This document shows, in pieces, positions 3,738 to 64,000 of a stretch of DNA of 64,000 nt. A program made the translations under genes and the position numbers. Positions within the stretch are counted from its first letter, which is position 1; each line of letters opens with the position of its first letter. Origin of the DNA: Ignavibacteriota bacterium (lineage in GTDB: Bacteria; Bacteroidota; Ignavibacteria; UBA10030; UBA6906); NCBI GenBank assembly GCA_016707525.1, contig JADJHP010000003.1:76677-140676 (forward strand), in the 5' to 3' direction. The notes under the pieces were generated by a model. That model made no database searches. It was not told where the DNA came from and worked only from the letters and a program-made list of their open reading frames with translations.

Positions 3738-3790
3738 GATCGGTCTCCATAAACTCGTTTGAAGTTCCCATGACAATGCAATGCAGATAT

Positions 3791-3814
3791 CAGATATCTG
3801 AATTCAGATATCTG
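3791..3814. repeat. 24-nt perfect AT-rich palindrome CAGATATCTGAATTCAGATATCTG in the hemY-hemB spacer
   Basis: Read directly. An extra CAGATAT half-site lies at 3784..3790. It sits between the hemY stop (3817) and the hemB start (3737). Confidence 0.85.
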
Positions 3815-3816
3815 AA

Positions 3817-5199
3817 TCAGCTTCTCACGATCCTCTCGGCAACATCCCGCCCGTTCCGCACACAATCCCCTACCGCAATGCCGCCACGGTAGTTCGCGCA
3901 CACCACGAGTCCGGGGTGCGAGGCTTCCAGCGCGTCCACCATCGTCATGATCTTCCCGTGACCCAGATTGTACTGGGGGATCGCACGGTCCCACCGGATG
4001 ACCCGGGCATACGCCGGCTCGCCCTGCACTGCCATGATCGAGGCCAGTTCCGAGCGCACCATCGCGAGGATCTCCGCATCCGTCTGCGCGAGGAGTTCGG
4101 GCTGGCGCGACCCTCCCACAAAGGTCGTCAGTGCACAATGCCCCTCCGGCGCCCGGCCGGGGAACAGAGCCGAGGACCAGATCGTCCCGAGGATATTCCG
4201 CTTCTCGACCGCGGGGATGAGGTACCCGAACCCATCCAGCGGGCGCCCGCACTGGCCGGTGCGGTATCCGAGATACACTTCCGCCACGGGGGGATAATAG
4301 ATCCCCCGGAGTGCACGCGCGAGGTCCGCTGCATGCGGCTGGAGCAATCCTGCTGCCGTGTACGACGGCACCGCGAGCACGACATCCGAGGCCTCCAGGC
4401 GCGAGGCCCTTCCACCCAAGGTATAGTCGATCGAAAAGCCCTGCCCCTTCCCCTGCGCAGACGGCTGCACGCCGATCGCGGTGACGGTGCAGTTGCATTG
4501 CACCGCCATGCCGAGACGATCCGCAATGGCTTCCGGGAACTGCTGCATGCCCCGCACGAACGAGAACATCCGTGCGCGGTCTTTCGCGACCTCTGCGCGC
4601 TTCTTGCGCTCGCGCGCACCGCCGATCATGCCACGGATCAACCCGCCATACTTCTCTTCCAGTGCGTAGAGCTTCGGGAAGGCGCTCCGGACGCTCAACT
4701 CTTCGGGGTTACCGGCATACACCCCGGCTACGAAGGGATTGATCGCATAGTCCAGGAATTCCCGGCCCAGGCGGCGTTCCACGAACTCGGCGATGGTCTC
4801 CTCACGGGCAGCGCGACCCACAAACGGTTCTTTCAGGAGCCGCAGTTTCCCGGGAACGGTCCACAGGCGCGACCTCAGAAAAGCCGGCGGGGACATGGGC
4901 AGAGCATGCAGCTGCCCGTTGCGGAGGATGTATCGGTTGTTGGATGCATCGTCCGCATACAGCCGGTCGCGCGTGAGTCCGAGGATCCCGAACATCTCGC
5001 CGAAGACCGGAGTGGTCTCCAGCGCGCTATTCGGCCCGGTCTCGACCATCCAGCCGCCGTCCTGCATCGTACGCATGGTCCCGCCCGCAACGCTCTCGCG
5101 TTCCAGGACGGTGACAGGCACACCGTTCTCTTTCAGCCAGAAGGCTGCGGTGAGTCCGGAGATCCCCCCGCCGATGACGACAACATGTTTCGTGCTCAT
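3817..5199 (-). CDS. hemY: FAD-dependent protoporphyrinogen/coproporphyrinogen III oxidase (HemY type)
   Basis: 460 aa with N-terminal VVVIGGGISGLTAA dinucleotide-binding motif. HemY-like throughout. Confidence 0.9.
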   Translation of the reverse strand: MSTKHVVVIGGGISGLTAAFWLKENGVPVTVLERESVAGGTMRTMQDGGWMVETGPNSALETTPVFGEMFGILGLTRDRLYADDASNNRYILRNGQLHALPMSPPAFLRSRLWTVPGKLRLLKEPFVGRAAREETIAEFVERRLGREFLDYAINPFVAGVYAGNPEELSVRSAFPKLYALEEKYGGLIRGMIGGARERKKRAEVAKDRARMFSFVRGMQQFPEAIADRLGMAVQCNCTVTAIGVQPSAQGKGQGFSIDYTLGGRASRLEASDVVLAVPSYTAAGLLQPHAADLARALRGIYYPPVAEVYLGYRTGQCGRPLDGFGYLIPAVEKRNILGTIWSSALFPGRAPEGHCALTTFVGGSRQPELLAQTDAEILAMVRSELASIMAVQGEPAYARVIRWDRAIPQYNLGHGKIMTMVDALEASHPGLVVCANYRGGIAVGDCVRNGRDVAERIVRS

Positions 5200-47496: not shown

Positions 47497-48237
47497 GTGG
47501 TCGTTTCCTTTCACATGGACCACATGAACAGCGATCTGTATACCCTCATCGGCACTGCCGCATCACTCGGTTTCATCCACACCCTTGTCGGGCCGGATCA
47601 CTATGTGCCGTTCGTCGCTATGGCCCGCGCGGGCAAATGGAGCCGGCTCAAGACGTTGTACGTGACGGTACTCTCCGGCCTCGGCCATGTAGGGAGTTCC
47701 ATCCTCCTCGGAGCGGTCGGGATCGCATTGGGCAGTGCACTGTCGCATCTTGAGTGGGTCGAATCGATACGCGGTGAGGTTGCGGCATGGATGCTGACCG
47801 GCTTCGGACTGGCATACATGGTCTGGGGGATCTGGCACGGGATCCGCTCCCGCCCGCATTCCCATGCACACGCCCATGCAGATGGCGCGGTGCACGAGCA
47901 CACGCACACGCATCACTCAGCGCACGCGCATCCCCATGAACACGGCAAGCCCGCGAACCTGACGCCCTGGATCATCTTCAGCATCTTTGTCTTCGGCCCG
48001 TGCGAGCCGCTGATCCCGTTGCTCATGTATCCCGCGGCCATCCACTCGTCGCTCGGCGTGGCCCTCGTTGCGACGGTCTTCGCCCTTACAACGATCGCAA
48101 CGATGCTCGGCATGGTCTTCCTCGGATTGGCCGGCGTCGAACTGATCCCCTTCCCCCGCCTCGAACGCTACATCCACGCCATGGCAGGCGGGATCATTGC
48201 CATGTCGGGGCTGAGCGTGCTCTTTCTTGGCCTCTAA
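47497..48237 (+). CDS. His-rich NicO/RcnA-like metal (Ni/Co) transporter
   Basis: 246 aa; the start may be the ATG at 47515 or 47524. Six TM helices, GFIHTLVGPDH motif, and a central His-rich loop HSHAHAHADGAVHEHTHTHHSAHAHPHEH. Confidence 0.65.
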   Translation: MVVSFHMDHMNSDLYTLIGTAASLGFIHTLVGPDHYVPFVAMARAGKWSRLKTLYVTVLSGLGHVGSSILLGAVGIALGSALSHLEWVESIRGEVAAWMLTGFGLAYMVWGIWHGIRSRPHSHAHAHADGAVHEHTHTHHSAHAHPHEHGKPANLTPWIIFSIFVFGPCEPLIPLLMYPAAIHSSLGVALVATVFALTTIATMLGMVFLGLAGVELIPFPRLERYIHAMAGGIIAMSGLSVLFLGL

Positions 48238-48274
48238 GAATTAAGAACTAAGAATTCTTAGTTCTTAATTCTTA
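48235..48274. terminator. 40-nt perfect AT-rich palindrome between convergent genes (bidirectional terminator candidate / six-frame stop element)
   Basis: TAAGAATTAAGAACTAAGAA|TTCTTAGTTCTTAATTCTTA. Three TAAGAAN heptads and their inverted complement. The outer TAA triplets are the stop codons of the two flanking genes. Confidence 0.7.
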
Positions 48275-51200
48275 TTTCGTCAGGCCAAGATACACGTACT
48301 CCACCGTCATCGCTTTCTGCGCATGGATGCCGATCCGGTTGAGCCCCTGGAGCAACGACGGCTCAACGGAGAACTCGACCGACTTCTTCACATCGGGAAG
48401 TTGGCGGACCACCTTCTCGGGAAAGATCTGTGGAGCGGCGGGCATGTGGCCGTCCTGCAAGCGTATGCCATTGAAGAAGACCACCACATCCTCCAGCTCC
48501 ATATCCTCCTTGCACTCGATCCGCAGCACCAGTGTCCGCGGAGGCATGGACTCTTTGACTCTCAGCTCTACAGTCTCGAGTTGAGCCTTGCGCAACGCGA
48601 GTGGAAGCTGCGATGTCAAGCTTACGCCGGGCACCGGGAACCACGCCGGCGCAAGCGAGTACAGTTTGTCCTTCCCTTCCAACAGTGACGGATCGATCAG
48701 CTCATGCAGGACCTCCAGATCAGGTTCGATCCCTCCATCCCATGCCACGAAGTAGTTGAACAGGTAGATCCCGTCAGCGCCGTTGGCGTAGTGCAACGCA
48801 GCTGTTGCCCGCTTTTCCCCCGCGTCATCTGACGGTTCCCCATGGTGAACTCCTGCGCCGCATACACGGGCACAGGGCCGCAGACCGCCTTGAACTCGCG
48901 CGCATTGATGTCATTCTCGGTCGACAGGAACGGTGCGATCGCAAGAACGTCGATCATGCCCTTCGTGCACCAGGTTGCCGGATCCACACCAAGATATGCG
49001 CACCCTTTGAGTGATGAAGGCACCCGGGCGGTAAGGAGTATCCGATGCCCGCGCGCAACCGAGATGCTGTCCACCACTCCCCTCACGCGGCCGACAAAGT
49101 CCGTCAGGATGCCTGCGAAGTGGGTCATCGAATCCGGCTTCAGCGGAAAATAGTACGGGAAACGCATGAAGTCGAGTTCAAAGCCGTCCATGTCGTACCG
49201 CTCAAGCGCTTCCCTCACGAGGGAGTAGAAGTATGCACGCACCTCGGGCACCGCGTAGTTTAGGGCCTCTTTTCCCCAGCCGGCATATCCCCCCACCCGC
49301 CACTCCGGGTGGGCCTTCCAGAAATCGCCGAGCAGAGGGCTCTCGGGCTTGTCCACATCATGCAGTTCATTCATGCGGAAGCTCAGGAAGGCCTCCATGC
49401 CGCGCAGCCGGGCACGATCAAGGACGATCCGCACCTGGTCGAGGGAGTCGGTGCCGAAGCGTGCGAGGTTCCTGCTCATCCTGGCCCCCAGCAACGGCCA
49501 TCCCTCTTTCGCATGCACCGGGGCATCCGGCCAATGGAACATGGACTCAACGCTGCTCGGGTACCCCGGGTTCTGTCCGGGATTGATATTATAGATGAAC
49601 GTCGTCACCCCGGCCTCCGCAATGGGATCGACACGGCCGTGGATGTCGCGCACGGTGAGTGAATCGAAATCCATCGGGATGCTTGAACCGTCATTATTAT
49701 AGATGAGGCGCCGGGCGAACCGGGGCGGCAGGGTCGCATCCCCTACCGGAGCCGAAGAAAGGGCCGCAGACAGATCGAAGGGGCGGAAGCCAAGCGCGAA
49801 TGCCGGCGAACCCTCTTTGAGCCGGAAATCGCCTCCGGCGGCATCGGCGAACCCGGGGTCAGCGACCAGGGAATGCACGTCGCGTCCGGTACGCTGCCAG
49901 CCGCTGAAATCGAGGGAATCGTACCGGAACGACCCCTGCACCGGCCAGTACAGATTCCGGTCCATGATGAGATTGCTGTCGCGCATCGAACCGAAGAGCA
50001 CGGGCCCACCGCTCCAGAGAATGATATTGCGTTCGAATGCGAAACTCATGTGGGGTTCGAAGCGGGTCCGGGCGACCTGATACTCCGCGCCGAACGCCAG
50101 GATATTGTTCCGGAAGATGTTCTCCTTCCCGTAGTGCTGATGGAACCCCCCGTGCTTCGTGCGGTACACCAGGTTCTCCTCGGCGCGGATATTCGTCGTC
50201 CCCTCATCGAAGTAGATGCCCCATCCGCCGTACACCCGTCCCGCGATATCATGGAAGACGTTGCGCCGAATCTCGGTCCCGCGTTGATAGCCAAGCGTGT
50301 AGATGCCGCCGAGATCGCTCAGCATCGGCCCTTCGCCATTGCTCAGGACACCGATGTGATGCACATGATTCAGCTCGACGATATTCCCGTACGCAAGCGC
50401 CGGCCCATACCCCCACGTCCACCCGATCGAGATGCCGGTATACTCGAAATCGTGAATATGGTTGTGGATGAGGCGGTTGAACGGGCTCTGGCCGATCCAC
50501 ACGCCGATGGCACTGTGGAAGATCTTCCCCCCGCTATGGATATGATTATCGAGGAGCCGGTTCCGCTGCGTCAACAATGCACGATCGTTCTCCAGGGTCT
50601 TGAGGCCAAGGAAGACGCCCCCGGCGCCAAGATCGGCGATCTCGGACCGCTGAATGAGATTGTCCTGGCATGCGGCCCCGAGGGAGATGCCGTAGGTTCC
50701 GGTGTGTGTGATCGCGCACTCCTCGAACGTGACGTGCCGCATCCCGGTGCACGCTACGGCCGCGGGCACTCCTGTCGCGGCCTGATTGAATCCGCCAACA
50801 TCCGGATTGCGCGAATCGGTCGTGTATCCTTTCGGGAAGAACCACTCGGCATGGCTGAAACCGATCCCGCGGAAGACGACGTGTTCCACCCAGCGGCCTC
50901 GTGCGGGTTCGCCTTCGATCCGCATCACCTGCTCCAGGACGGGCACGACCGCATCGATGCTCCGGATGTCCTCACCCGGCATCGGCAGATAGTAGATCTT
51001 CCCCTGTTTCTCGTCGAGCCACCACTCCCCCGGTACGTTCAATGCGCCACGCGCGGACTGGATATAGTACACATCACCGGGATCGATGCGGAACACCGAC
51101 CTGCGCGCGAAACGGAACGTGCGCGACGCCGGTTCATAGGTTGTCACGGGCAGGTACGACTCGACCCATTTTGTGGAGAGGACGACCTGCGCCCCTCTGA

Positions 51201-51828
51201 GGTCGAACTTCGGCGGTACGGTCCCCGGTTTCGCGACGAAGGAACGCTGACCCTCCATCCAGTCCATGGACGGCGTGATCTCAGGGATGGTATCGACGGA
51301 GAGATAGCCGGAATCGGGAAAGCGTGCCGGAGATCTGCGCTCACCGTTCACCCACAGTTCGCGCACATCGGGATTGGACCTGCGTACCTGTGCGGGCAAC
51401 GCGGCAACCCAGACGTTCTTCCCATCGAGGGTGGTCCGGGTCCACTGTGTGAGGACGGCGCCGCCGCTGAGCACAGGCGATGCGCCCGGGAGGGCCGCGA
51501 TGACTGTGGGCGATGTTGCGGAACCGCTGATCCCGGATCCCAGATGGAGAGGTGCGTTCAGGAAGTACCGTCCGCCATGGAGCAGGACCAGCACGGTATC
51601 CGTGAGGCCTGGCCGGGCCGACCGGAGATCCTGCACTGCCCGGGCAGCCCGGGCAAGCGATGCGAACGGGTGGGCGGCATCACCCACAGCGCGGTCGTTG
51701 CCAGAAGGCGCAACATGGAAAACGGCGGCCGGGGGGAGGGCCCAGGCAGCACTGATGGACAACAGCAGACTGAGGGCGGCGATACGGAATGAGCGGGAGA
51801 ACATCGGAGGCCTCTGCTTGTGGGACAT
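48272..51828 (-). pseudogene. Secreted right-handed beta-helix + glycoside-hydrolase-like TIM-barrel protein, split by a frameshift at the C5 run 48817..48821
   Basis: The 1043-aa ORF (48697..51828) has a signal peptide, parallel beta-helix repeats and a GHL10-like domain (FELDFMRFPYYF), then degenerates after ...FTMGNRQMTR. The 174-aa ORF (48272..48796) continues in another frame. Adding one G to ACGCGGGGGAAAAG gives ...TRGEKRATAALHYANGADGIYLFNYF. Confidence 0.75.
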
Positions 51829-56557: not shown

Positions 56558-56629
56558 TCCGCGATAGCTCAATGGTAGAGCATGCGGCTGTTAACCGCAG
56601 GGTTGCAGGTTCGAGTCCTGCTCGCGGAG
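56558..56629 (+). tRNA. tRNA-Asn (anticodon GTT)
   Basis: Hand-folded cloverleaf. Acceptor TCCGCGA/TCGCGGA, D arm GCTC-AATGGTA-GAGC, anticodon arm TGCGG-CTGTTAA-CCGCA, T arm GCAGG-TTCGAGT-CCTGC, discriminator G. No encoded CCA. Confidence 0.93.
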
Positions 56630-56634
56630 CACAA

Positions 56635-56672
56635 GAAAGCCCCGGAAGAAATTCCGGGGCTTTCTGCGTTTT
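56635..56672 (+). terminator. Intrinsic terminator after tRNA-Asn
   Basis: GAAAGCCCCGGAA-GAAA-TTCCGGGGCTTTC (13-bp stem) followed by TGCGTTTT. Confidence 0.8.
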
Positions 56673-56722
56673 GGAACACGCCCTACGCTATGCAATCGTG
56701 GCATCCCTGATGGCGATCACCA

Positions 56723-59413
56723 CTACCGGAGAACCAAAAGCCTCCCGGGTCTCCGTGAAGTTGCCCCCTGCAGTCTATAGAAATAGACCCCGCTTGAAAA
56801 TCCTCCCGCATCGAATTGCACGCTATGATCCCCCGCATCCTGTTCTCCATCCTGCAGAACGGCGACCTGCTGGCCGAGAACGTTGAACACCGTGAGCTTC
56901 ACGCGCATGCGTGCAGGCAAGGCGAACCGGATGGTAGTTGTCGGATTGAAAGGATTGGGAAAGTTCTGCGCAAGCATGAATCCTCCAACAGGATCGGCAC
57001 GCCTCTCCCGGACGGCAGTAACCGACGACCCGGGACTTTTCAGCAGCGTTCCCGCATTGCCGGCGATGAGCTGGGTCTGCCCGTTCACAACCGCGATGGT
57101 ATGCAGATCCTGCGTCGTCCCGCTCACCATGTACCCCCACGTCGCTCCTCCATCGGTCGTCCTGAGGATCGTGCCCCGGGCTCCCGCCACCCAACCGGAA
57201 TCGCGGCCGGAGAATGCAACGGCATTCAGGGATGATCGCGTTGGGACCCCCTGTTGCAGGATCCAGACTTCGCCACCATTCGTTGTCCGGTAGATACGGC
57301 CGAAGTCCCCCACGAGGTATCCTGTCAGCGAGTCTGCGAATGTCATGCTCTGCATGGTGAGCGTATCGGTAAAGGTCCAGACCGTCCAGGTGGCACCGCT
57401 GTCCTGTGTCGCCGCCAGAGTGCCATGGTCCCCCATCGCCCATCCTCGCGATGGATCAGCGAAGTATACACCCCGGAGAGTCCTGGTGGTCGACAACGGT
57501 ACGAGCGTCCAATGTATGCCGCCATTCGTGGTCGTGTAGAGCACACCTCCCGTTCCCACAACCCATCCACGGGTGGCCGAGAGCATCTGGATCGCGCACA
57601 GGCGGCCACCCTCAGGCACGCTGACAAGCGACGGCTCCCAGGAAACACCGCCGTCTGATGTGCGGTTTATCGCCGCAGAGTCGATGACCCAGCAACGGAG
57701 TGGATCCACCGCACTCACTCCATATGACGGTTTGTTTGATTGAGAAGATACGGCCGCCCAGGTGAGTCCGGCATCCGTTGATCGAAGGAGCCCCGACTCT
57801 CCCGCCAGCCACCCTGACGCAGGGCTCGTGAAAGTGACCGCATTGATCGCCCCGGGCGTTGGTGAAGCAACACGCTCCCACGCAGGAGGGGCGGGCTTCA
57901 TGTTCACCGTGAATGTGATGCTGTCTCCCGGGAAACCGATCTCCGAGAGATCCAGATTCCCCATCAGCCCTGATGCGAGGATGCACGCCGGATTCGTCAT
58001 CCCGCTGATCGCCGTGCGTGCTGGCCTGCAGAATGCAGCGGAATCCAGCGTGCCGTTCAGTTGGAAACCAAGGTAGGGATTGCCGCCCGGTCGATAGGGA
58101 TACACTTCATCGGGAGGGCCATCCGCATTTCCGCGAAGGAGACTATCGATCCGGTATACCAGCAACCCTTCGCCCGGAAGAATGCTCTCAAAGATGGAAG
58201 TCCGCTTCCGATACTCAAGGATGAAGCACTCGCCTTCCACAGGAGAATCGATCCTGTAGCAGTTGTTCGAGGGTGAAGTCAAGGGCCGAAGAGAATAGCG
58301 CCCCGATGTTGTGATCCGCGGGATCGTGTCGATCCATCCCAGGTATTTGTACCGGAGCCATGCCCCGGTGTGTTGAGGGATCTCCCGGGTATCCGCCATG
58401 AGATCCCAACGACCGACTGGAACAACGTTATCCGATGTGGTGTACCGATACGTGTCAGGCGCACCAAGCGAATGTAACATTTCATGGACGAACACGGCAA
58501 CGGTGGCACGCGACTGCATCTGGACATTGAACAAGTTCACCTTCTTCGTCCCGATCATCGGGCCCATATCCCGCATCGACGACATATGAGGCCAGAGGAA
58601 GGTACCCCGTGCAACAGGATCACCCTGTATGATGAAGCACACGTTGTCGACATACCCGTCCCCATCGCCGTCGAGCACAAGGCCGTTGGGGATCTGGCCA
58701 GCGATAGCGCTGATCGCCCGGTCAGTGAGTTCCCGTTCGCGGATGTACCGTTGCGAGGGTGGATAGCCGATGGTGTCGCTTGCGCTGTACGGATAGTAGT
58801 ACGCGCGGGGCCGGACATCCAGATACGAGAGGACCGTGGATCCCGGCTGTGTCGGGAAGAACGATGTCATCACCTCAAGCCGGCCGAACGATATCTCCCG
58901 GATGTAGTTGTACACCGAGCTCACTCCAGGAGTGGCCTCATTGAATTTGGCGACATACTGCGCGAAGCTATCCCCGAATGCGTCATCATCACTGAAGCGT
59001 ACGAAGATGACCAGGTTGGACATCACGCCGGTCCTCGGCGTGGCCGCGTGCACTGGCGGTGCATACTCCGGCGTCAGGGCACGGATCGCCTCTTCCGCCT
59101 GGAGGGAAATGTTCGCGTGCGGAAGCAGCCCTGCGCCGGCGGGATCATCTCGGCCGGGGAGTTCGGCTGTCGGGACAAGCAACTCTCCCCTCCGCTCGGC
59201 GTACACGTAGAACCCACTCGTCCGGTCCTGGATGATGGTGAACCCGTTGCGGTCGTGGAGCCAGTTATGATACTCGTCGCCTGTCGCAAAGCATTGCAGC
59301 GTACTGCCGTCCGGTTGCCGGACGGTGACCGGAACATCGTGCAGGTACGCCGTGTGTGAGATGAACGGAAGGAGAAAGAGGCACGTGATAAGAATGGCAA
59401 TGCGCATGTGCAC
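56723..59413 (-). CDS. Secreted M6-like metalloprotease fused to a BNR/Ycf48-like beta-propeller, with a T9SS C-terminal sorting domain
   Basis: 896 aa. Signal peptide, M6-type N-terminal region with HEMLHSLGAPD (HExxH), repeated G..(L/Y)(R/T)T.DGG.(T/S)W propeller blades, and a C-terminal FPNPFNPTTTIRF...GVYFYRL sorting-domain pattern. Confidence 0.85.
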   Translation of the reverse strand: MHMRIAILITCLFLLPFISHTAYLHDVPVTVRQPDGSTLQCFATGDEYHNWLHDRNGFTIIQDRTSGFYVYAERRGELLVPTAELPGRDDPAGAGLLPHANISLQAEEAIRALTPEYAPPVHAATPRTGVMSNLVIFVRFSDDDAFGDSFAQYVAKFNEATPGVSSVYNYIREISFGRLEVMTSFFPTQPGSTVLSYLDVRPRAYYYPYSASDTIGYPPSQRYIRERELTDRAISAIAGQIPNGLVLDGDGDGYVDNVCFIIQGDPVARGTFLWPHMSSMRDMGPMIGTKKVNLFNVQMQSRATVAVFVHEMLHSLGAPDTYRYTTSDNVVPVGRWDLMADTREIPQHTGAWLRYKYLGWIDTIPRITTSGRYSLRPLTSPSNNCYRIDSPVEGECFILEYRKRTSIFESILPGEGLLVYRIDSLLRGNADGPPDEVYPYRPGGNPYLGFQLNGTLDSAAFCRPARTAISGMTNPACILASGLMGNLDLSEIGFPGDSITFTVNMKPAPPAWERVASPTPGAINAVTFTSPASGWLAGESGLLRSTDAGLTWAAVSSQSNKPSYGVSAVDPLRCWVIDSAAINRTSDGGVSWEPSLVSVPEGGRLCAIQMLSATRGWVVGTGGVLYTTTNGGIHWTLVPLSTTRTLRGVYFADPSRGWAMGDHGTLAATQDSGATWTVWTFTDTLTMQSMTFADSLTGYLVGDFGRIYRTTNGGEVWILQQGVPTRSSLNAVAFSGRDSGWVAGARGTILRTTDGGATWGYMVSGTTQDLHTIAVVNGQTQLIAGNAGTLLKSPGSSVTAVRERRADPVGGFMLAQNFPNPFNPTTTIRFALPARMRVKLTVFNVLGQQVAVLQDGEQDAGDHSVQFDAGGFSSGVYFYRLQGATSRRPGRLLVLR

Positions 59414-59856
59414 CCCCAGCGTGAAGCGGTCTGAAATCTGGAATCACGGGAGGAAAGGGATCAGGACGGGATTGATACGAATCCCCCACTCCGATCAATC
59501 AACATCATTAGGTGGGGGCATCTGCTCCTCTCTCCCTTTCCGGTGAGGTGTCGAATTGTCCGACATGGCATTGCTGATCGGTCAAGGGCCATATCGTTCC
59601 CCGGTGATGCCATTCAATAATACGGCTCGGCAGCGAGGTTGTCAAATCCGATGTGAACCACGAATGATCACCGCGAACGAACTTTCCGTCACTTCATGTC
59701 CCGTCTGGGAGTCGATGTTGCTCATCATACGATCCATTCATTCAGCAGAAGATATGTACCATCCGTGATAGGAGACCCCGCCTTGCCTGCCATCAAGCAG
59801 CTTGGGCGATGATCCAAGAAGAAGAGGTAGATGTGGACCCGGCTACCCAGCCTTTT

Positions 59857-60162
59857 TCACATACCCTTCAGCACTCTGCTTACCCAGACCCTGATCACTC
59901 CCAAATGCTGGGCCAGATCCGTTTGCGTCGTGAATGGTCCGTCGTCAAGCATTCGGCGGTACAGTCGTTGTAGCGCCACATAGTCGATTCGTGATCTGGT
60001 GATCCTCTCCGTAACGAATGGGAGTATCAGACCGCACTCACGCAAGTGCATGATTCCGCCCGCCGATATCTCCCGCGACGAATGGAGAGTCGCTTCAGTG
60101 ATCGAAAAGACCTTCTCACCATGTGCGGAATTGCGGATTTCAAGGGGAATCCGGACCAACAA
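59857..60162 (-). CDS. Possible small HTH DNA-binding protein (uncertain gene)
   Basis: 101-aa ORF (or 64 aa from the internal Met). The C-terminal TQTDLAQHLGVIRVWVSRVLKG looks like a helix-turn-helix. It lies in the lower-GC region with no other support. Confidence 0.3.
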   Translation of the reverse strand: MLVRIPLEIRNSAHGEKVFSITEATLHSSREISAGGIMHLRECGLILPFVTERITRSRIDYVALQRLYRRMLDDGPFTTQTDLAQHLGVIRVWVSRVLKGM

Positions 60163-60193
60163 AAGTTTGAGTTATGGTGTCTTTCGCGGAGCA

Positions 60194-60229
60194 AGGGGTC
60201 CCCTCAGACGGGACCCCTTTTTCTTTTTT
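60194..60229 (+). terminator. Strong plus-strand intrinsic terminator with no obvious upstream gene
   Basis: AGGGGTCCC-CTCAGAC-GGGACCCCT followed by TTTTTCTTTTTT. The U-tract exists only on the plus strand. Confidence 0.6.
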
Positions 60230-60387
60230 GTCCAGTGTTGCAGGCTGAGTCCCGATGCCCTTCATCGGGACGAAATCCCTCCGTTCGTTAGCGGGATGCG
60301 AGTTGAGCCCCTCAATTTTGCACATAGTCTCCCCCGTTGCATTAGCAGGATCCTGCTCGCTGGCCCCCCCGATTGTACTGGAGTAAG

Positions 60388-60431
60388 TCCACATATTTAG
60401 TTAAATTTGTGGAGTCATCATCCACATATTT
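60388..60431. promoter_or_regulatory. Three copies of an 11-nt motif TCCACA(T/A)ATTT (one inverted) just upstream of the ATPase gene; operator-like
   Basis: TCCACATATTT at 60388..60398, its near-complement AAATTTGTGGA at 60403..60413, and TCCACATATTT at 60421..60431. The GTG start is at 60444. Confidence 0.45.
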
Positions 60432-60443
60432 GGGGCCCGCATT

Positions 60444-61658
60444 GTGATCGAAAGAGCACTTCATATTGAACGGCTTCTGAAACCCAGGAAGGTCCTGATC
60501 ATGTACGGGGCCCGTAGGGTTGGCAAGACGACCCTCCTGAAAGACTTCCTGTCTCATTCGAAGCTCAAATACCGTATTGATTCCGGCGACAATATCAGGC
60601 TCCAGCATGTGTTCGAGTCGCAGGACTTTGAGGCATTGTCCGATTACGTCGAAGGGTATGAACTGATTGCGATTGATGAAGCGCAGCAAATCAGGAACAT
60701 CGGCATGGGCCTGAAGATCCTTGTGGACCAACACCCGTCTCTCAAGATCATCGTTACAGGTTCCTCTTCTTTCGACCTGTCACAATCGGTCGGTGAACCA
60801 TTGACGGGCCGCAAGAAAACGGTGGTCCTCTATCCGATGTCGTTGTTGGAACTCGGCGCCCTCTACAATAAGCAAGAACTCTCAGAGCAACTGGAAAACT
60901 TCTTGAGATTCGGGCTGTATCCTGAGATCATCACGACGAAAAGCAAGAAGGGAAAGATGGAAATCCTGCGGGAACTTGTCGATTCCTACCTCTTGAAGGA
61001 CATTCTCAGCCTCGAAAAGATCAAGGGTTCGCGCCAGCTTCTGGATCTCCTCAAGCTTCTTGCATTCCAGATCGGCAATGAGGTGTCTTTCACTGAGTTG
61101 GCCACACAGGTCCGGCTGGATGTGAAGACCGTAGCACGCTACCTCGATATCCTGGAAAAAGGATTCGTGATCCAGCGCATCGGTGCATTGAGCCGGAATC
61201 CGCGCAAGGAGGTGACCAGCAAAGCGAAGTACTATTTCTTCGATGTCGGCATCCGGAACGCCATCATTTCGCAGTTCAATGAGATCGGAGATCGGAACGA
61301 TACAGGAAATCTCTTCGAGAACTTCATCGTCATGGAGCGCCAGAAAACGAATGCCTACAAGCAGAGGATCTCTCAGACATATTTCTGGCGAACCTACGAC
61401 GGACAGGAAGTCGATGTTATTGAGGAACAGAATGGCAGGATCCACGGCTATGAGGTGAAGTCGTCTCCGGGAAAGAAATCCAGAACACCCTCATCGTGGA
61501 AAACAACATATCCGGATGCCCTTCTGACGCTGATCAACAGAGAGAACTATCTCCCGTTCATTCTGGATGAAAAGCGTAGAGAGAAGCAATTGCGCGAGGA
61601 CATACCGCAGATCCGGGGAAATGAACGCGTAGAAGTTCCGGTCTATTGCCCCCCGTGA
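60444..61658 (+). CDS. AAA+ ATPase with C-terminal DUF4143-like domain (COG1373-type)
   Basis: 404 aa, GTG start. Walker A GARRVGKTT, Walker B IAIDEAQ, and a typical C-terminal ...YFWRT..G.EVD... block. Visibly lower G+C than its neighbours. Confidence 0.8.
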   Translation: MIERALHIERLLKPRKVLIMYGARRVGKTTLLKDFLSHSKLKYRIDSGDNIRLQHVFESQDFEALSDYVEGYELIAIDEAQQIRNIGMGLKILVDQHPSLKIIVTGSSSFDLSQSVGEPLTGRKKTVVLYPMSLLELGALYNKQELSEQLENFLRFGLYPEIITTKSKKGKMEILRELVDSYLLKDILSLEKIKGSRQLLDLLKLLAFQIGNEVSFTELATQVRLDVKTVARYLDILEKGFVIQRIGALSRNPRKEVTSKAKYYFFDVGIRNAIISQFNEIGDRNDTGNLFENFIVMERQKTNAYKQRISQTYFWRTYDGQEVDVIEEQNGRIHGYEVKSSPGKKSRTPSSWKTTYPDALLTLINRENYLPFILDEKRREKQLREDIPQIRGNERVEVPVYCPP

Positions 61659-61665
61659 TACCAGG

Positions 61666-64000
61666 CTACTTCACAACCAACCGATACGTCTCGATCGCCT
61701 GATGTCCGACGGGTACCGATATACGGTTCCCGCTCTGGTTCATGGGACCGACTTTCACCTCAATGATGTCCGTCGAGAACGATGCCTTCGCTTCGAATGG
61801 AAGCCCAATGCGGGCCGTCGCGCTCTCCCTGTCCGCCTCGTAGAGCCGGAGGATCACATCATCGTTGTCTTCCGCCTTCTTCATCGTGCTCAGCACGATA
61901 TTGTCCGCCTCCACCGAGAGAAAACTCTTCGATCCGGGAAGCGTCCCGCCCGCATGACCGGGATCGAGCACGACCGCTGTCAGCGGAGAATTCGCCTCGA
62001 CGCCGAACCGGCGCCCGTTTCTCCATCCGGGTTGATGCGATGTGAGAGAGAATCGGAAATCATGATCGCCGGTCTGCGGATACCAGTTGCCTTCCCAGTG
62101 GCAGCTCTTCCGGGAGGCCAGGAGGATCGGCTGCAGCAACGTCGCGGTATCCGTGCTGTCGGTCGGATTCCGATAATCCCATACGGCGACGCTTGAGCTC
62201 AACGTGATCCCGAGGTCATTGTCCGAGGCGTTGATCCAGTTCTGGATCGTGCGCGGACGGACGCCCGGAGCCGGACTGGTATACCGCTCTCCCGGCGCAC
62301 CGCGCATTTCGTCCTTCCCTATCTCGACCGTTTCGAACGGTGCTTCGTACGCAACCGTGCCCCGGTTGACGTTCACCGGGAACGCCAGACGGAACTCGCG
62401 GTAGTGCGTTCCATCCCATCCAAGCAGCGATGTTGAGAAGTCGATCTGCCTGAGGGCATGATACAGAGTGATCCGCTGTACCACGGTCGTGTGCTCGATC
62501 GGCTGGCGGAGTTCAAGTACATCTCTGACCGGTCCCTGCTCAAGGACATACCAGCGCGAGGGATGATTGCTCATCCTGTCGAATCCCTCCATCGTCGGAT
62601 ATTGGGGGTCAGCCCATTCTCCCGCATCCTCGCCGATCGACTGCATCGTGAAAAGTTCGCCTCCAAGAAACGCCGAGCGTGCCAGCAAATTCTTTCCGAG
62701 CTTCTTGTCGGTTATCTGCTTCACGCCGCCAGGCGCGAGGGCGATGCGGTAGTGCTCGTTCTCAATGATGCTGGGGGCCGGCGCATTCGCCGGCGAACCG
62801 GAAACCGCATTGCCACCGACAACCCGGTACGTCGCATACCCGATGGAGGGGACCCCGGCGGCGATGAAGGTGATCTCGGCGCTCCGTATGCTTCCATCGT
62901 CAAAGCGCTCGAGTCTGCTCACCTGAGCCGGGATCACTTCTCCCCCTGTCCCCTGATCCCCACTCCCTTCTTGAACATCCCCTTGGCCGGTTCCACCGTG
63001 CACGTCACTGCCCCTGTCCGCTTCCAGCTGAGCCGATTGAAGACCACAACGGGGATACCTCCCTTCGTGTCCCTCCTCACCATCTTTGCGATATTCTTCG
63101 TGGCTTCGCCATAGATCTCTTTGGACATATCGCGGGCCGTCCGGTACTTCGCCAGGAAGGTACTATCCGTGACGTCGCCGTTCTTGCCGCCCCATCCGTG
63201 ATCAGGATAGAGCTGCGCTTCCCACGCCGCCGTCAGGCGCGCGGCGGGGTAGCCGGAGAACGAACGGGCGAGAAGTGCACCGATCGTGGAGAAGGTCTCC
63301 GCCGCGGTGAGGTACGTGTCCGCCTCCCGCTTGGCGTCGATCGCCCAATGATGGGTCGGCCCGTGAATATACAGCCAGATGTTCGGCCGTTCCCCGCGGA
63401 TCTCCGGGAAGGAGCGGCCTTCCTTTGCGACCTGATCCAGCCACCCGGCTGCCGTCGAGTACTGCAGGGCAGGCAGACGGAGGGGTTGACTCTCGCCGGA
63501 TTCCGACGTGATGGAACTCAGGCTGTTCCAGGTGTGCATGAAGTCGCCATAGTTGATCGGGGCGCTCATGTCACTCATCGAGATCACAGGGATGGCTCTG
63601 GTGCCATTGGGAATGCCGACGGCCCAATCGCGGGAGAACGATGCGAGAAACCCTGCAGCCTCGTGGAACGGCTTCCCGAGCGAGCGTTCGATGAAGAGTG
63701 CATAGTGCGCAGGACTGAAAACAGTGATCGACGAGCTGTCGTAACTCTTCCAGGTGTACAGTCCTTTTTCCTGACGGCTCACGATGAGCGCCGGGACGCC
63801 GGCCTTCGCCATCACCTGGGGCATCTGTCCGGCCCGCCCCGGGACGTCCGGGTTCCATGCAACTCGCGAATCGCATCCGGGGAAATTCGTCAGGAGCCAT
63901 TTCTTACCCGCGTAGAACTGGCGGACCAGCATTTCGCCCGAGCAGAGATCTTCGTACGGCATATTGTAGCTGGCGCCGATACCGAGCCGTCCGTCGGCGA
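61666..64000 (-). pseudogene. GH38 alpha-mannosidase, 5' end beyond the window, interrupted by a frameshift at the C5 run 62942..62946
   Basis: The upstream frame (62934..64000, open to the window edge: ..DGRLGIGASYNMPYEDLCSGEMLVRQF..) and the downstream ORF 61666..63003 together form a GH38 central and C-terminal region. Adding one G to GGACAGGGGGAG gives ..GIRGQGGEVIPAQVSRLE... Confidence 0.75.

Follow-up and report, generated by a model that had tools for sequence, protein, structure and literature searches.

A loop-less TAAGAAN palindrome that supplies both stop codons at a convergent gene junction of an Ignavibacteriota bacterium, and the dispersed, constrained heptamer-repeat family to which it belongs

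The palindrome and its flanking genes

We analysed a 64,000-nucleotide stretch of an Ignavibacteriota bacterium (GenBank assembly GCA_016707525.1, contig JADJHP010000003.1, positions 76,677 to 140,676 of the forward strand), hereafter the window, in which a NicO-like transporter gene and a convergent beta-helix gene are joined by a 40-bp palindrome built of TAAGAAN heptads. The palindrome is no artefact: it occurs naturally, as one copy of a dispersed and constrained heptamer-repeat family, and supplies the stop codons of both genes. An earlier note on the window had described this element from its letters alone. Its features and those of the two genes are listed below (a centred dot marks the axis of symmetry here and in other motifs).

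47524..48237, + strand: NicO-like (PF13386 DsbD_2) membrane transporter gene, 237 aa, with ATG at 47524 as in homologues
48235..48237, + strand: stop codon of the NicO-like gene, positioned as in homologues (almost all 237 aa)
48235..48274, no strand: whole element, two inverted TAAGAAN arrays (3 + 3 units) abutting at GAA·TTC
48235..48254, + strand: left arm, TAAGAAT TAAGAAC TAAGAA, with TAA in + frames 1, 2 and 3
48255..48274, - strand: right arm, reverse-complementary to the left arm throughout, with TAA in the three - frames
48272..51828, - strand: beta-helix / GH141-like / GHL10 gene, one gene in two frames
48272..48274, - strand: stop codon of the beta-helix/GHL10 gene, placed by orthologue alignments

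The element reads TAAGAATTAAGAACTAAGAA followed directly by TTCTTAGTTCTTAATTCTTA, a perfect 20+20 palindrome without a loop, as the earlier note had seen, and with an EcoRI site at its centre. The arms had been read as three heptads each; two are complete TAAGAAN units and the third is a 6-nt unit (TAAGAA), which is why the element measures 40 and not 42 nt. Because the unit holds TAA and 7 equals 1 modulo 3, three units close three frames and the inverted array does likewise. The phasing of TAA in all six frames was borne out, with starts at 48235, 48242 and 48249 on the + strand, one per frame, and their mirror image on the - strand; the right arm adds a TAG at 48259 and a TAA at 48266 on the + strand. 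Tandem Repeats Finder reported a period of 7 on each arm.

The G+C content of the element is 20% (8/40), lower than the approximately 25% first estimated, against 52-65% in the window, so the composition is indeed foreign to the genome; 30-nt windows with a G+C content of 30% or less make up the bottom 0.1% of the window. The 40-mer has no second copy in the window even at 3 mismatches, 100 shuffles yielded zero matches to it at 3 mismatches or fewer, and no paired TAAGAAN units were found elsewhere in the 64 kb. The second-longest perfect palindrome of the window is 26 bp, and a generic detector of heptad-repeat palindromes returned 2 in the window for 0.017 expected from first-order Markov simulations. 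The palindrome is far beyond chance.

In comparisons we denote the window copy as W and give compared loci and contigs L numbers. Orthologue alignments confirm both gene ends, so the two outermost TAAs are genuine stop codons, as had been proposed. The 1043-aa open reading frame (ORF) at 48697-51828 and the 174-aa ORF at 48272-48796 form one gene with a frameshift near 48811-48817, as is clear from the alignment to L006, whose 1178-aa homologue is intact. The beta-helix protein of the window has a tail 3 aa shorter than in the element-free loci L006 and L093, and NicO (237 aa) is as long as its element-free homologues. The frameshift adjoins short T and C runs; the gene may be a pseudogene, or a homopolymer may have been misread in sequencing. 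In L005 the homologue is likewise called in pieces, and it is intact in L006 and in the contig of protein P0003.

Folded as RNA in an 81-nt context, the element reaches a predicted -35.2 kcal/mol (z = -8.9), and the 40-mer as DNA -14.5 kcal/mol; of the 18 pairs of the stem, 4 are G-C. The sequences CTTGGCC and GGCCAAG on the two flanks (48221-48234 and 48281-48290) are complementary and lengthen the predicted RNA stem. We did not retain this as a signal: it is probably a coincidence, since both proteins end in Leu-Gly codons, and it is missing in L005.

Several known kinds of element were tried and rejected. A canonical terminator would have a G+C-rich stem and a T-run, and the element has neither, its tails being TTTCGTCA on one strand and GAGGCCAA on the other, neither T-rich; a consensus scan found no terminator and no sigma-70 promoter at the element. 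Rfam placed only a tRNA of the window above the gathering threshold, which leaves no known RNA family. An attC site was rejected on the purine/pyrimidine pattern, TAAGAAC...GTTCTTA being wrong for RYYYAAC...GTTRRRY, and also on the variable C/G position and the single occurrence of copies. An IS200/IS605-type hairpin (of the insertion sequence, IS, families) and a repetitive extragenic palindromic (REP) head were both rejected for want of a conserved flanking tetranucleotide.

The junction in relatives and the dispersed family

The order alpha-galactosidase, NicO, beta-helix gene and outer-membrane barrel is shared by independent environmental assemblies that carry the element at the same place (ENA ERZ25039462, JGI 3300063112 and JGI 3300063010), with 1-2 natural substitutions relative to the window. 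The element reads TAAGAATTAAGAACGAAGAATTCTTAGTTCTAAATTCTTA (38/40) in L005, whose NicO is 89% identical, and L094/L095 (NicO 81%) have the window sequence with GAATTC changed to GAGTTC (39/40). Three other states of the junction were seen: a 29-nt G+C-rich spacer in place of the element in L093 (NicO 82%); a C+T-rich spacer of 33 nt in L091/L092 (NicO 83%), which match the element-bearing relatives in spacer length and in gene ends; and, in L006 (NicO 73%), genes 1 nt apart with TGA stops and no element. On these alignments the window copy postdates the divergence from the L006 lineage and was then inherited vertically. The C+T-rich spacer, TTCTTCTCTCTGCTCTCTTCTCTCTTCATTGCT (L091 1338-1370, L092 1075-1107), shows a rough 7-nt periodicity and may be a decayed or replaced element.

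Among W, L005 and L094, the DNA identity of NicO is 76-80%, falling to 52-55% at third positions; it is 67-82% for the end of the beta-helix gene and 67-83% for the flanking coding DNA overall. The element is kept at 37-39/40 (92.5-97.5%). The binomial probability of this identity is 1e-7 to 1e-10 at the third-position rate and 1.6e-4 to 6e-2 per pair at the coding-flank rate. The orthologous element pairs L001-L058 (39/40) and L004-L073 (36/40) show the same excess conservation. The element has stayed nearly unchanged while the synonymous sites of the neighbouring gene approached saturation, and is therefore under sequence constraint. Orthologues also differ by whole units, with 3 in L001 and 4 in L058, and 3 in L003 and 2 in L089. 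On these comparisons the element is old and vertically inherited, is maintained by selection or else by an efficient process of homogenisation, and slips in 7-nt steps.

One orthologous copy departs from the unit itself. In L073 228-267 (orthologue of L004 5832-5871), the units of the gene-proximal arm all read GAAGAAN and not TAAGAAN, by three parallel T-to-G changes, and the hydrolase ORF reads through this arm for approximately 9 extra residues. The arm has the appearance of a concerted unit change.

We searched 185,579 species genomes with a strict 26-nt core and found 4 loci in 2 metagenome-assembled genomes (MAGs), three in Bacteroidota bacterium BIN5 (JAUQWO01) and one in Ignavibacteriae bacterium fen_1290 (PMCM01). 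A looser core retrieved 84 metagenome contigs, of which approximately 30 are GC-rich (53-68%) and clearly carry the same element; it had no match in viral contigs. The low-GC metagenome matches (G+C 0.24-0.35; e.g. L007, L015, L024, L061) were discarded as an unrelated repeat of A+T-rich contigs. Those contigs come from plant-associated samples and share a conserved ...TTACTGATAAGAAAYAAGAATTCTTTGTTCTTTYCCC... that looks like a eukaryotic or organellar dispersed repeat. Collapsing orthologues left 21 non-orthologous loci, so that the further TAAGAAN palindromes which the earlier note proposed to look for in relatives do exist. The copies lie in GC-rich DNA, in MAGs and metagenome contigs with an Ignavibacteriota or Bacteroidota label, and the exact 40-mer of the window recurs in L001 and L084. 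Exact-protein look-ups with the window proteins and P0137 gave no match. As to taxonomy, the signs favour the FCB group and Ignavibacteriota: the 90% cluster of the closest NicO contains an Ignavibacteriota MAG protein, and a T9SS-sorted protein is encoded in the window.

The membership pattern fixes AAGAA..AAGAATTCTT..TTCTT. Outside the positions so fixed, the core AATTAAGAA-N-TAAGAA·TTCTTA-N-TTCTTAATT is well kept, with 16-19 of 20-21 copies showing a base pair at positions +/-13 to +/-16. Conservation within the family and between orthologues is strong at six positions of the unit, and the seventh varies (C 16, T 10, G 3 of 29). A third unit is found in roughly half of the arms. There are subfamilies whose members share an asymmetry at unrelated loci, for instance TCAAGAA·TTCTTAG in L010, L076 and L089. 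A regex and nhmmer search, limited in sampling to the window and 242 kb of GC-rich loci, found no separated arms, solo arms, or extra or degenerate copies; a longer transposon with these termini was rejected on the same search.

Every interpretable copy adjoins the 3' end of at least one gene. Approximately 14-16 of the 22 abutting genes stop on an element TAA, and the remainder stop 3-35 nt before the element. The flanking genes are convergent in about 7 cases, tandem in 4-5 and clearly divergent in none; in L012 a start codon lies 6 nt from the element and the other side is unresolved. The neighbours are unrelated housekeeping genes (sigma-54 activator/LptE, gamma-glutamyltranspeptidase/DUF2062, hydrolase/DUF5916, histidine kinase, ribosomal protein S13), and no gene family was found to recur beside the elements other than orthologous pairs and two sigma-54 activator paralogues. 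Since any abutting ORF ends at once, the element can sit flush between convergent genes and give both stops. The simplest reading is that in compact genomes the element alone is left between ORFs, its phased stops making this harmless.

In L003 and L089 a TAAGAAN element lies between the rpsM stop and the rpsK start, inside the infA-rpmJ-rpsM-rpsK-rpsD-rpoA operon, with S13 (127 aa) as long as in element-free homologues. The same spacer in L216-L225, whose S13 is 93% identical, holds a palindrome of TGTGGAT/ATCCACA heptads flush with the S13 stop. In L220 1279-1312 it reads CAAT TGTGGAT TGTGGAT·CCACAAT CCACAAT TG, a perfect 34-bp palindrome centred on GGATCC, and among contigs with identical S13 the unit number is 2+2, 4+1 or 5+1 (a further copy lies at L218 905-960). 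This unit corresponds to positions 3-9 of the DnaA box TTATCCACA. Another example is found in MAG BIN5 (L002 7291-7320), where TTATCCA TTATCCA·TGGATCA TGGATAA is enclosed by a convergent pair of canonical terminators. A 37-nt terminator-like hairpin, CACAAAAGCCCGCCTCCGGCGGGCTTTTGAA, occurs twice there (L002 4320-4355 and 7250-7285), preceding this palindrome as well as the TAAGAAN copy 3 kb away. The second heptad palindrome of the window, at 3784-3820, reads CAGATAT CAGATAT CTGAAT·TCAGATAT CTGAAT (TCAGATATCTGAAT x2); it is A+T-rich, with a 14-nt period and the centre GAATTC. At its edge, 3817-3819 is the TGA stop of a protoporphyrinogen-oxidase-like gene (3817-5199, - strand), and the likely hemB (ALAD) start is approximately 45 nt downstream. 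This palindrome may be a further heptad palindrome of the same class, or else an operator. The architecture, inverted heptad arrays flush with a stop codon and variable in unit number, thus recurs with differing units. Longer palindromes in L060 2570-2640 and L080 1775-1845 have a TAAGAA-like centre with GTTCGAA/CTCGAAC heptads on both sides, and because the two kinds of heptad are mixed there, arrays can be mosaics of different units.

Other repeats were noted in the same data. In GC-rich (57-64%) viral contigs (L213 with four copies, L121, L189, L211; also L133, L138, L176, L184 and others), direct, non-palindromic TAAGAAN arrays occur at gene junctions. Most viral direct TAAGAAN arrays are in A+T-rich DNA (median 36% G+C), and only the GC-rich ones may be relevant. 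A 32-nt viral motif, GTTAAGAAATAAGAATTAAGAAATAAGAGTTA, recurs between consecutive genes, right after stops and 0-25 nt before starts, and may be a phage regulatory or initiation element. In the window, the G+C-rich palindrome GGGCGGTGCA(TG)CACCGCCC occurs three times in 1.1 kb (338-357, 1305-1324 and 1365-1380), each time followed by a C(C)TACAA-like sequence, and represents a repeat family of this genome with REP-like or terminator-like character. Further along, the region 56558-62000 begins with tRNA-Asn (56558-56630), followed by a BNR protein with a type IX secretion system (T9SS) sorting signal. Its part at 58-62 kb has a lower G+C content (52-57%), a DUF4143/AAA_14 ATPase gene and an A+T-rich imperfect palindrome (60388-60413). 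This region may be an island.

A proposed gene-end punctuation element and its alternatives

The copies described above show the element to be a natural member, on the chromosome, of a lineage-specific family of intergenic TAAGAAN palindromes. We favour, with a little more than even confidence, the reading that these palindromes act as REP-like gene-end punctuation and are not canonical intrinsic terminators. The element would serve as a constrained hairpin or recognition site at the 3' ends of transcription units and between cistrons. Either strand would give the same RNA, predicted to fold from the stop codon into an A-U-rich hairpin of 18-20 bp, and at the DNA level a symmetric array of heptad sites would be offered. 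Arm length would change through slippage of 7-nt units. In the family as sampled, nothing was found to indicate classical transposition as its means of spread.

A number of observations weigh against this reading. Because the search pattern fixes AAGAA..AAGAATTCTT..TTCTT, the centre and inner units cannot serve as evidence of conservation across loci. The arms, of 2-5 units across the family, are often unequal. Watson-Crick pairs occur at the free positions +/-6 and +/-7 in no more than 15/21 and 12/21 copies, and on the latter count arm pairing is not visibly selected. A single compensatory pair type was seen, the substitutions of L005 and L094 disrupt pairs, and RNA-level compensatory evolution was rejected as not seen. 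The constraint is on sequence and not on shape alone, which a purely structural role would not need and which points to a specific partner. The TAAGAAN copies of L002 and L087 lie 3-10 nt from a canonical G+C-rich terminator hairpin, and the TTATCCA member of L002 may lie in untranscribed DNA. Finally, the copy number is low (1 in the 64-kb window, at least 3 in MAG BIN5). REP-type families usually have hundreds of copies.

The alternative that survives best, though we hold it to be doubtful, is a sequence-specific DNA binding-site array, each TAAGAAN heptad being a subsite for a small protein that, like the omega repressor of pSM19035, binds direct and inverted heptads co-operatively; chromosomal architectural, segregation or titration sites, say, would be placed clear of promoters. 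Such an array would account for a unit with six constant positions and one free, for pairing that is not maintained at the variable positions and for the variable number of units. It is also consistent with the TTATCCA member between two canonical terminators, where an RNA function is unlikely, and with the GC-rich viral contigs bearing direct TAAGAAN arrays at gene junctions. The TTATCCA (L002) and ATCCACA (L216-L225) units match parts of the DnaA box, but this likeness covers only 7 of 9 positions and does not extend to TAAGAAN itself. We found no candidate protein and no gene recurring beside the elements, the sites are at gene 3' ends and not at promoters, and the two heptad types at rpsM-rpsK of related lineages would require the binding protein to have been switched.

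The element could instead be a very small miniature inverted-repeat transposable element (MITE) or the footprint of one, which we consider unlikely: two terminal inverted repeats of 18-20 bp with no interior, mobilised in trans and inserted at the TA of TAA/TAG stops, where insertion is tolerated since the stop is restored in any frame. This would explain why identical 40-mers occur at unrelated loci of different genomes (W, L001, L084), why unrelated loci share diagnostic asymmetries (the TCAAGAA·TTCTTAG subfamily) and why the NicO junction exists in filled and empty states. The ends are TA...TA, with A as the next base in 6/8 complete copies, as expected after insertion into TAA, and MITEs with six-frame stops are known, MITEAba12 among them (PMC6382973). 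Against it stand the size of 26-47 bp, below any described MITE, and the abutting ends, which leave no synaptic loop. Neither separated arms nor a longer element was found in 242 kb of element-bearing DNA, and no transposase was seen nearby. There is no flanking direct repeat beyond a possible TA, and this putative duplication is indistinguishable from the repeat unit to which it belongs. Orthologous copies are conserved far beyond neutral, unlike a dead transposon copy, and arm length changes in situ by 7-nt steps. The suggestion of a mobile-element footprint in the earlier note thus holds for a repeat dispersed over many unrelated loci, and found no target-site duplication, separated arms or transposase partner on its side.

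A broader proposal, which we think distinctly improbable, is that heptad palindromes form a general, actively maintained gene-end punctuation system of the clade, with a dedicated process installing and homogenising them and TAAGAAN selected as a universal translation stop. In its favour, different units (TAAGAAN, TGTGGAT, TTATCCA, CAGATAT) are found in one kind of position and, at rpsM-rpsK, even in one and the same spacer. The process may be a heptad-reading protein family, or templated repeat addition at both ends of a break followed by rejoining; the latter would give an array joined without spacer to its reverse complement, the arm lengths being independent and the target not duplicated.

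We give still less credence to a bidirectional intrinsic terminator common to the two convergent genes, which the earlier note had suggested. The element does lie exactly between convergent genes with no other hairpin there, both transcripts are predicted to form the same long hairpin, and convergent junctions are over-represented in the family, which has no clearly divergent case. The suggestion was nonetheless not supported at the element itself, with 4 G-C pairs in 18, the tail TTTCGTCA on one strand, no T-run on the other and no call by the consensus scan. Elsewhere, members lie inside operons (between rpsM and rpsK of the ribosomal alpha operon, and between a sigma-54 activator gene and lptE). 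At rpsM-rpsK, inside a ribosomal operon, an efficient terminator would do harm. Two other copies have canonical terminators 3-10 nt away, and the L006 junction functions without any spacer. A weak barrier or an mRNA-stabilising hairpin is possible.

An engineered six-frame stop cassette, a vector remnant or an assembly artefact can be dismissed: the perfect palindrome with its EcoRI site, the stops in all frames and the foreign composition would suit it, but the element occupies the same locus in independent environmental assemblies of other samples with 1-2 natural substitutions (which by itself rejects an assembly artefact) and is found at approximately 20 other loci of MAGs and contigs from the environment. 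A BLAST search of plasmids produced nothing beyond partial, A+T-rich matches due to chance (E >= 0.03), and a literature search returned the sequence in no relevant context, its sole match being a chance 13-mer in a virus paper.

Comparison with known systems

Mycobacterial interspersed repetitive unit-variable number tandem repeats (MIRU-VNTR), reportedly described by Supply and colleagues in 1997, resemble the TAAGAAN family as intergenic repeats of a GC-rich genome whose ends overlap codons of the neighbouring genes (stop and start for MIRU) and whose unit number varies. They differ in being direct repeats of 40-100-bp units, as opposed to 7-nt units arranged in a palindrome. The omega protein of pSM19035 is a ribbon-helix-helix repressor that acts on contiguous direct and inverted 7-bp units in plasmid promoters. 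Contiguous direct and inverted 7-bp units in variable number are shared with our element; unlike omega operators, the TAAGAAN sites are chromosomal and lie at gene ends, and no candidate protein was found for them. With bidirectional Rho-independent terminators the element shares a hairpin between convergent genes and the same fold in both transcripts, and it departs from them in lacking a G+C-rich stem and U/A tracts and in having copies inside operons and beside true terminators.

Like MITEs such as MITEAba12 and the Correia elements, the TAAGAAN element is non-coding and dispersed, is bounded (trivially) by inverted repeats and can terminate neighbouring ORFs. Unlike them it measures 26-47 bp, has no internal segment and no parent IS that we found, and its orthologous copies are constrained. 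A six-frame stop alone is not unusual, since MITEAba12 carries stops in all six frames (PMC6382973).

REP sequences and bacterial interspersed mosaic elements (BIMEs) are closer, being likewise short, dispersed extragenic palindromes at gene 3' ends and between cistrons, with a hairpin just after the stop. REPs stabilise upstream mRNA, and according to a 2015 report by Liang, Rudd and Deutscher, those within about 15 nt of the stop codon are said to affect translation of the upstream gene. The TAAGAAN element differs in that it starts with TAAGAAT and has no GTAG/GGAG head, and in that its flanks are unrelated between copies. No gene for a REP-associated tyrosine transposase (RAYT) was seen among the annotated neighbours, the genomes themselves not having been searched. 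Copies are also single and not paired as in REP doublets forming hairpins (REPINs), A+T-rich and heptameric inside, and few as opposed to hundreds.

The nearest counterparts are heptamer repeats. Heptanucleotide short tandemly repeated repetitive (STRR) sequences of Calothrix were reportedly described by Mazel and colleagues in 1990. Rehm et al. (2015; PMC4692102) described intergenic heptameric repeats in Xanthomonas (GGGAATC) and in Nostoc/Anabaena (GGGGAYT) that are under-represented between divergent genes, lie within 50 bp of stop codons or overlap them, and persist at orthologous loci, where the number of units changes and their type is preserved. They are not linked to IS or other mobile elements and have no known function; Xanthomonas has about 180 heptamer-repeat copies per genome, and 70-75 cases per genome are inverted pairs able to form stem-loops (PMC4692102). 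The TAAGAAN family has the same tandem 7-nt units (Tandem Repeats Finder), intergenic position near or overlapping stops with no clearly divergent case, and persistence at orthologous loci with unit-number changes. It departs from the Xanthomonas/Nostoc class in a unit that is A+T-rich, holds a stop codon and has no G-quadruplex potential, in arrays that abut exactly and so form a loop-less perfect palindrome, in a copy number that seems low (in the sampled DNA, 1 TAAGAAN and 1 other heptad palindrome in 64 kb, and at least 3 strict copies in BIN5) and in a host of a different phylum.

Short heptamer repeats between genes occur in excess in several bacterial phyla, and neither how they arose nor what they do has been explained. 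The present case adds an uncultured GC-rich lineage in which the unit itself encodes a stop, terminates all six frames and can replace the stops of both neighbours; a measurable signal of purifying selection (92-97% identity against near-saturated synonymous sites); and a locus, rpsM-rpsK, at which two different heptad palindromes replace each other. Together these three additions make it testable whether architecture or sequence matters. For annotation, elements of this kind should be taken as marking real gene ends and not as artefacts. The TAAGAAN family belongs with the intergenic heptamer-repeat inverted pairs of Xanthomonas and cyanobacteria and with REP-like elements.

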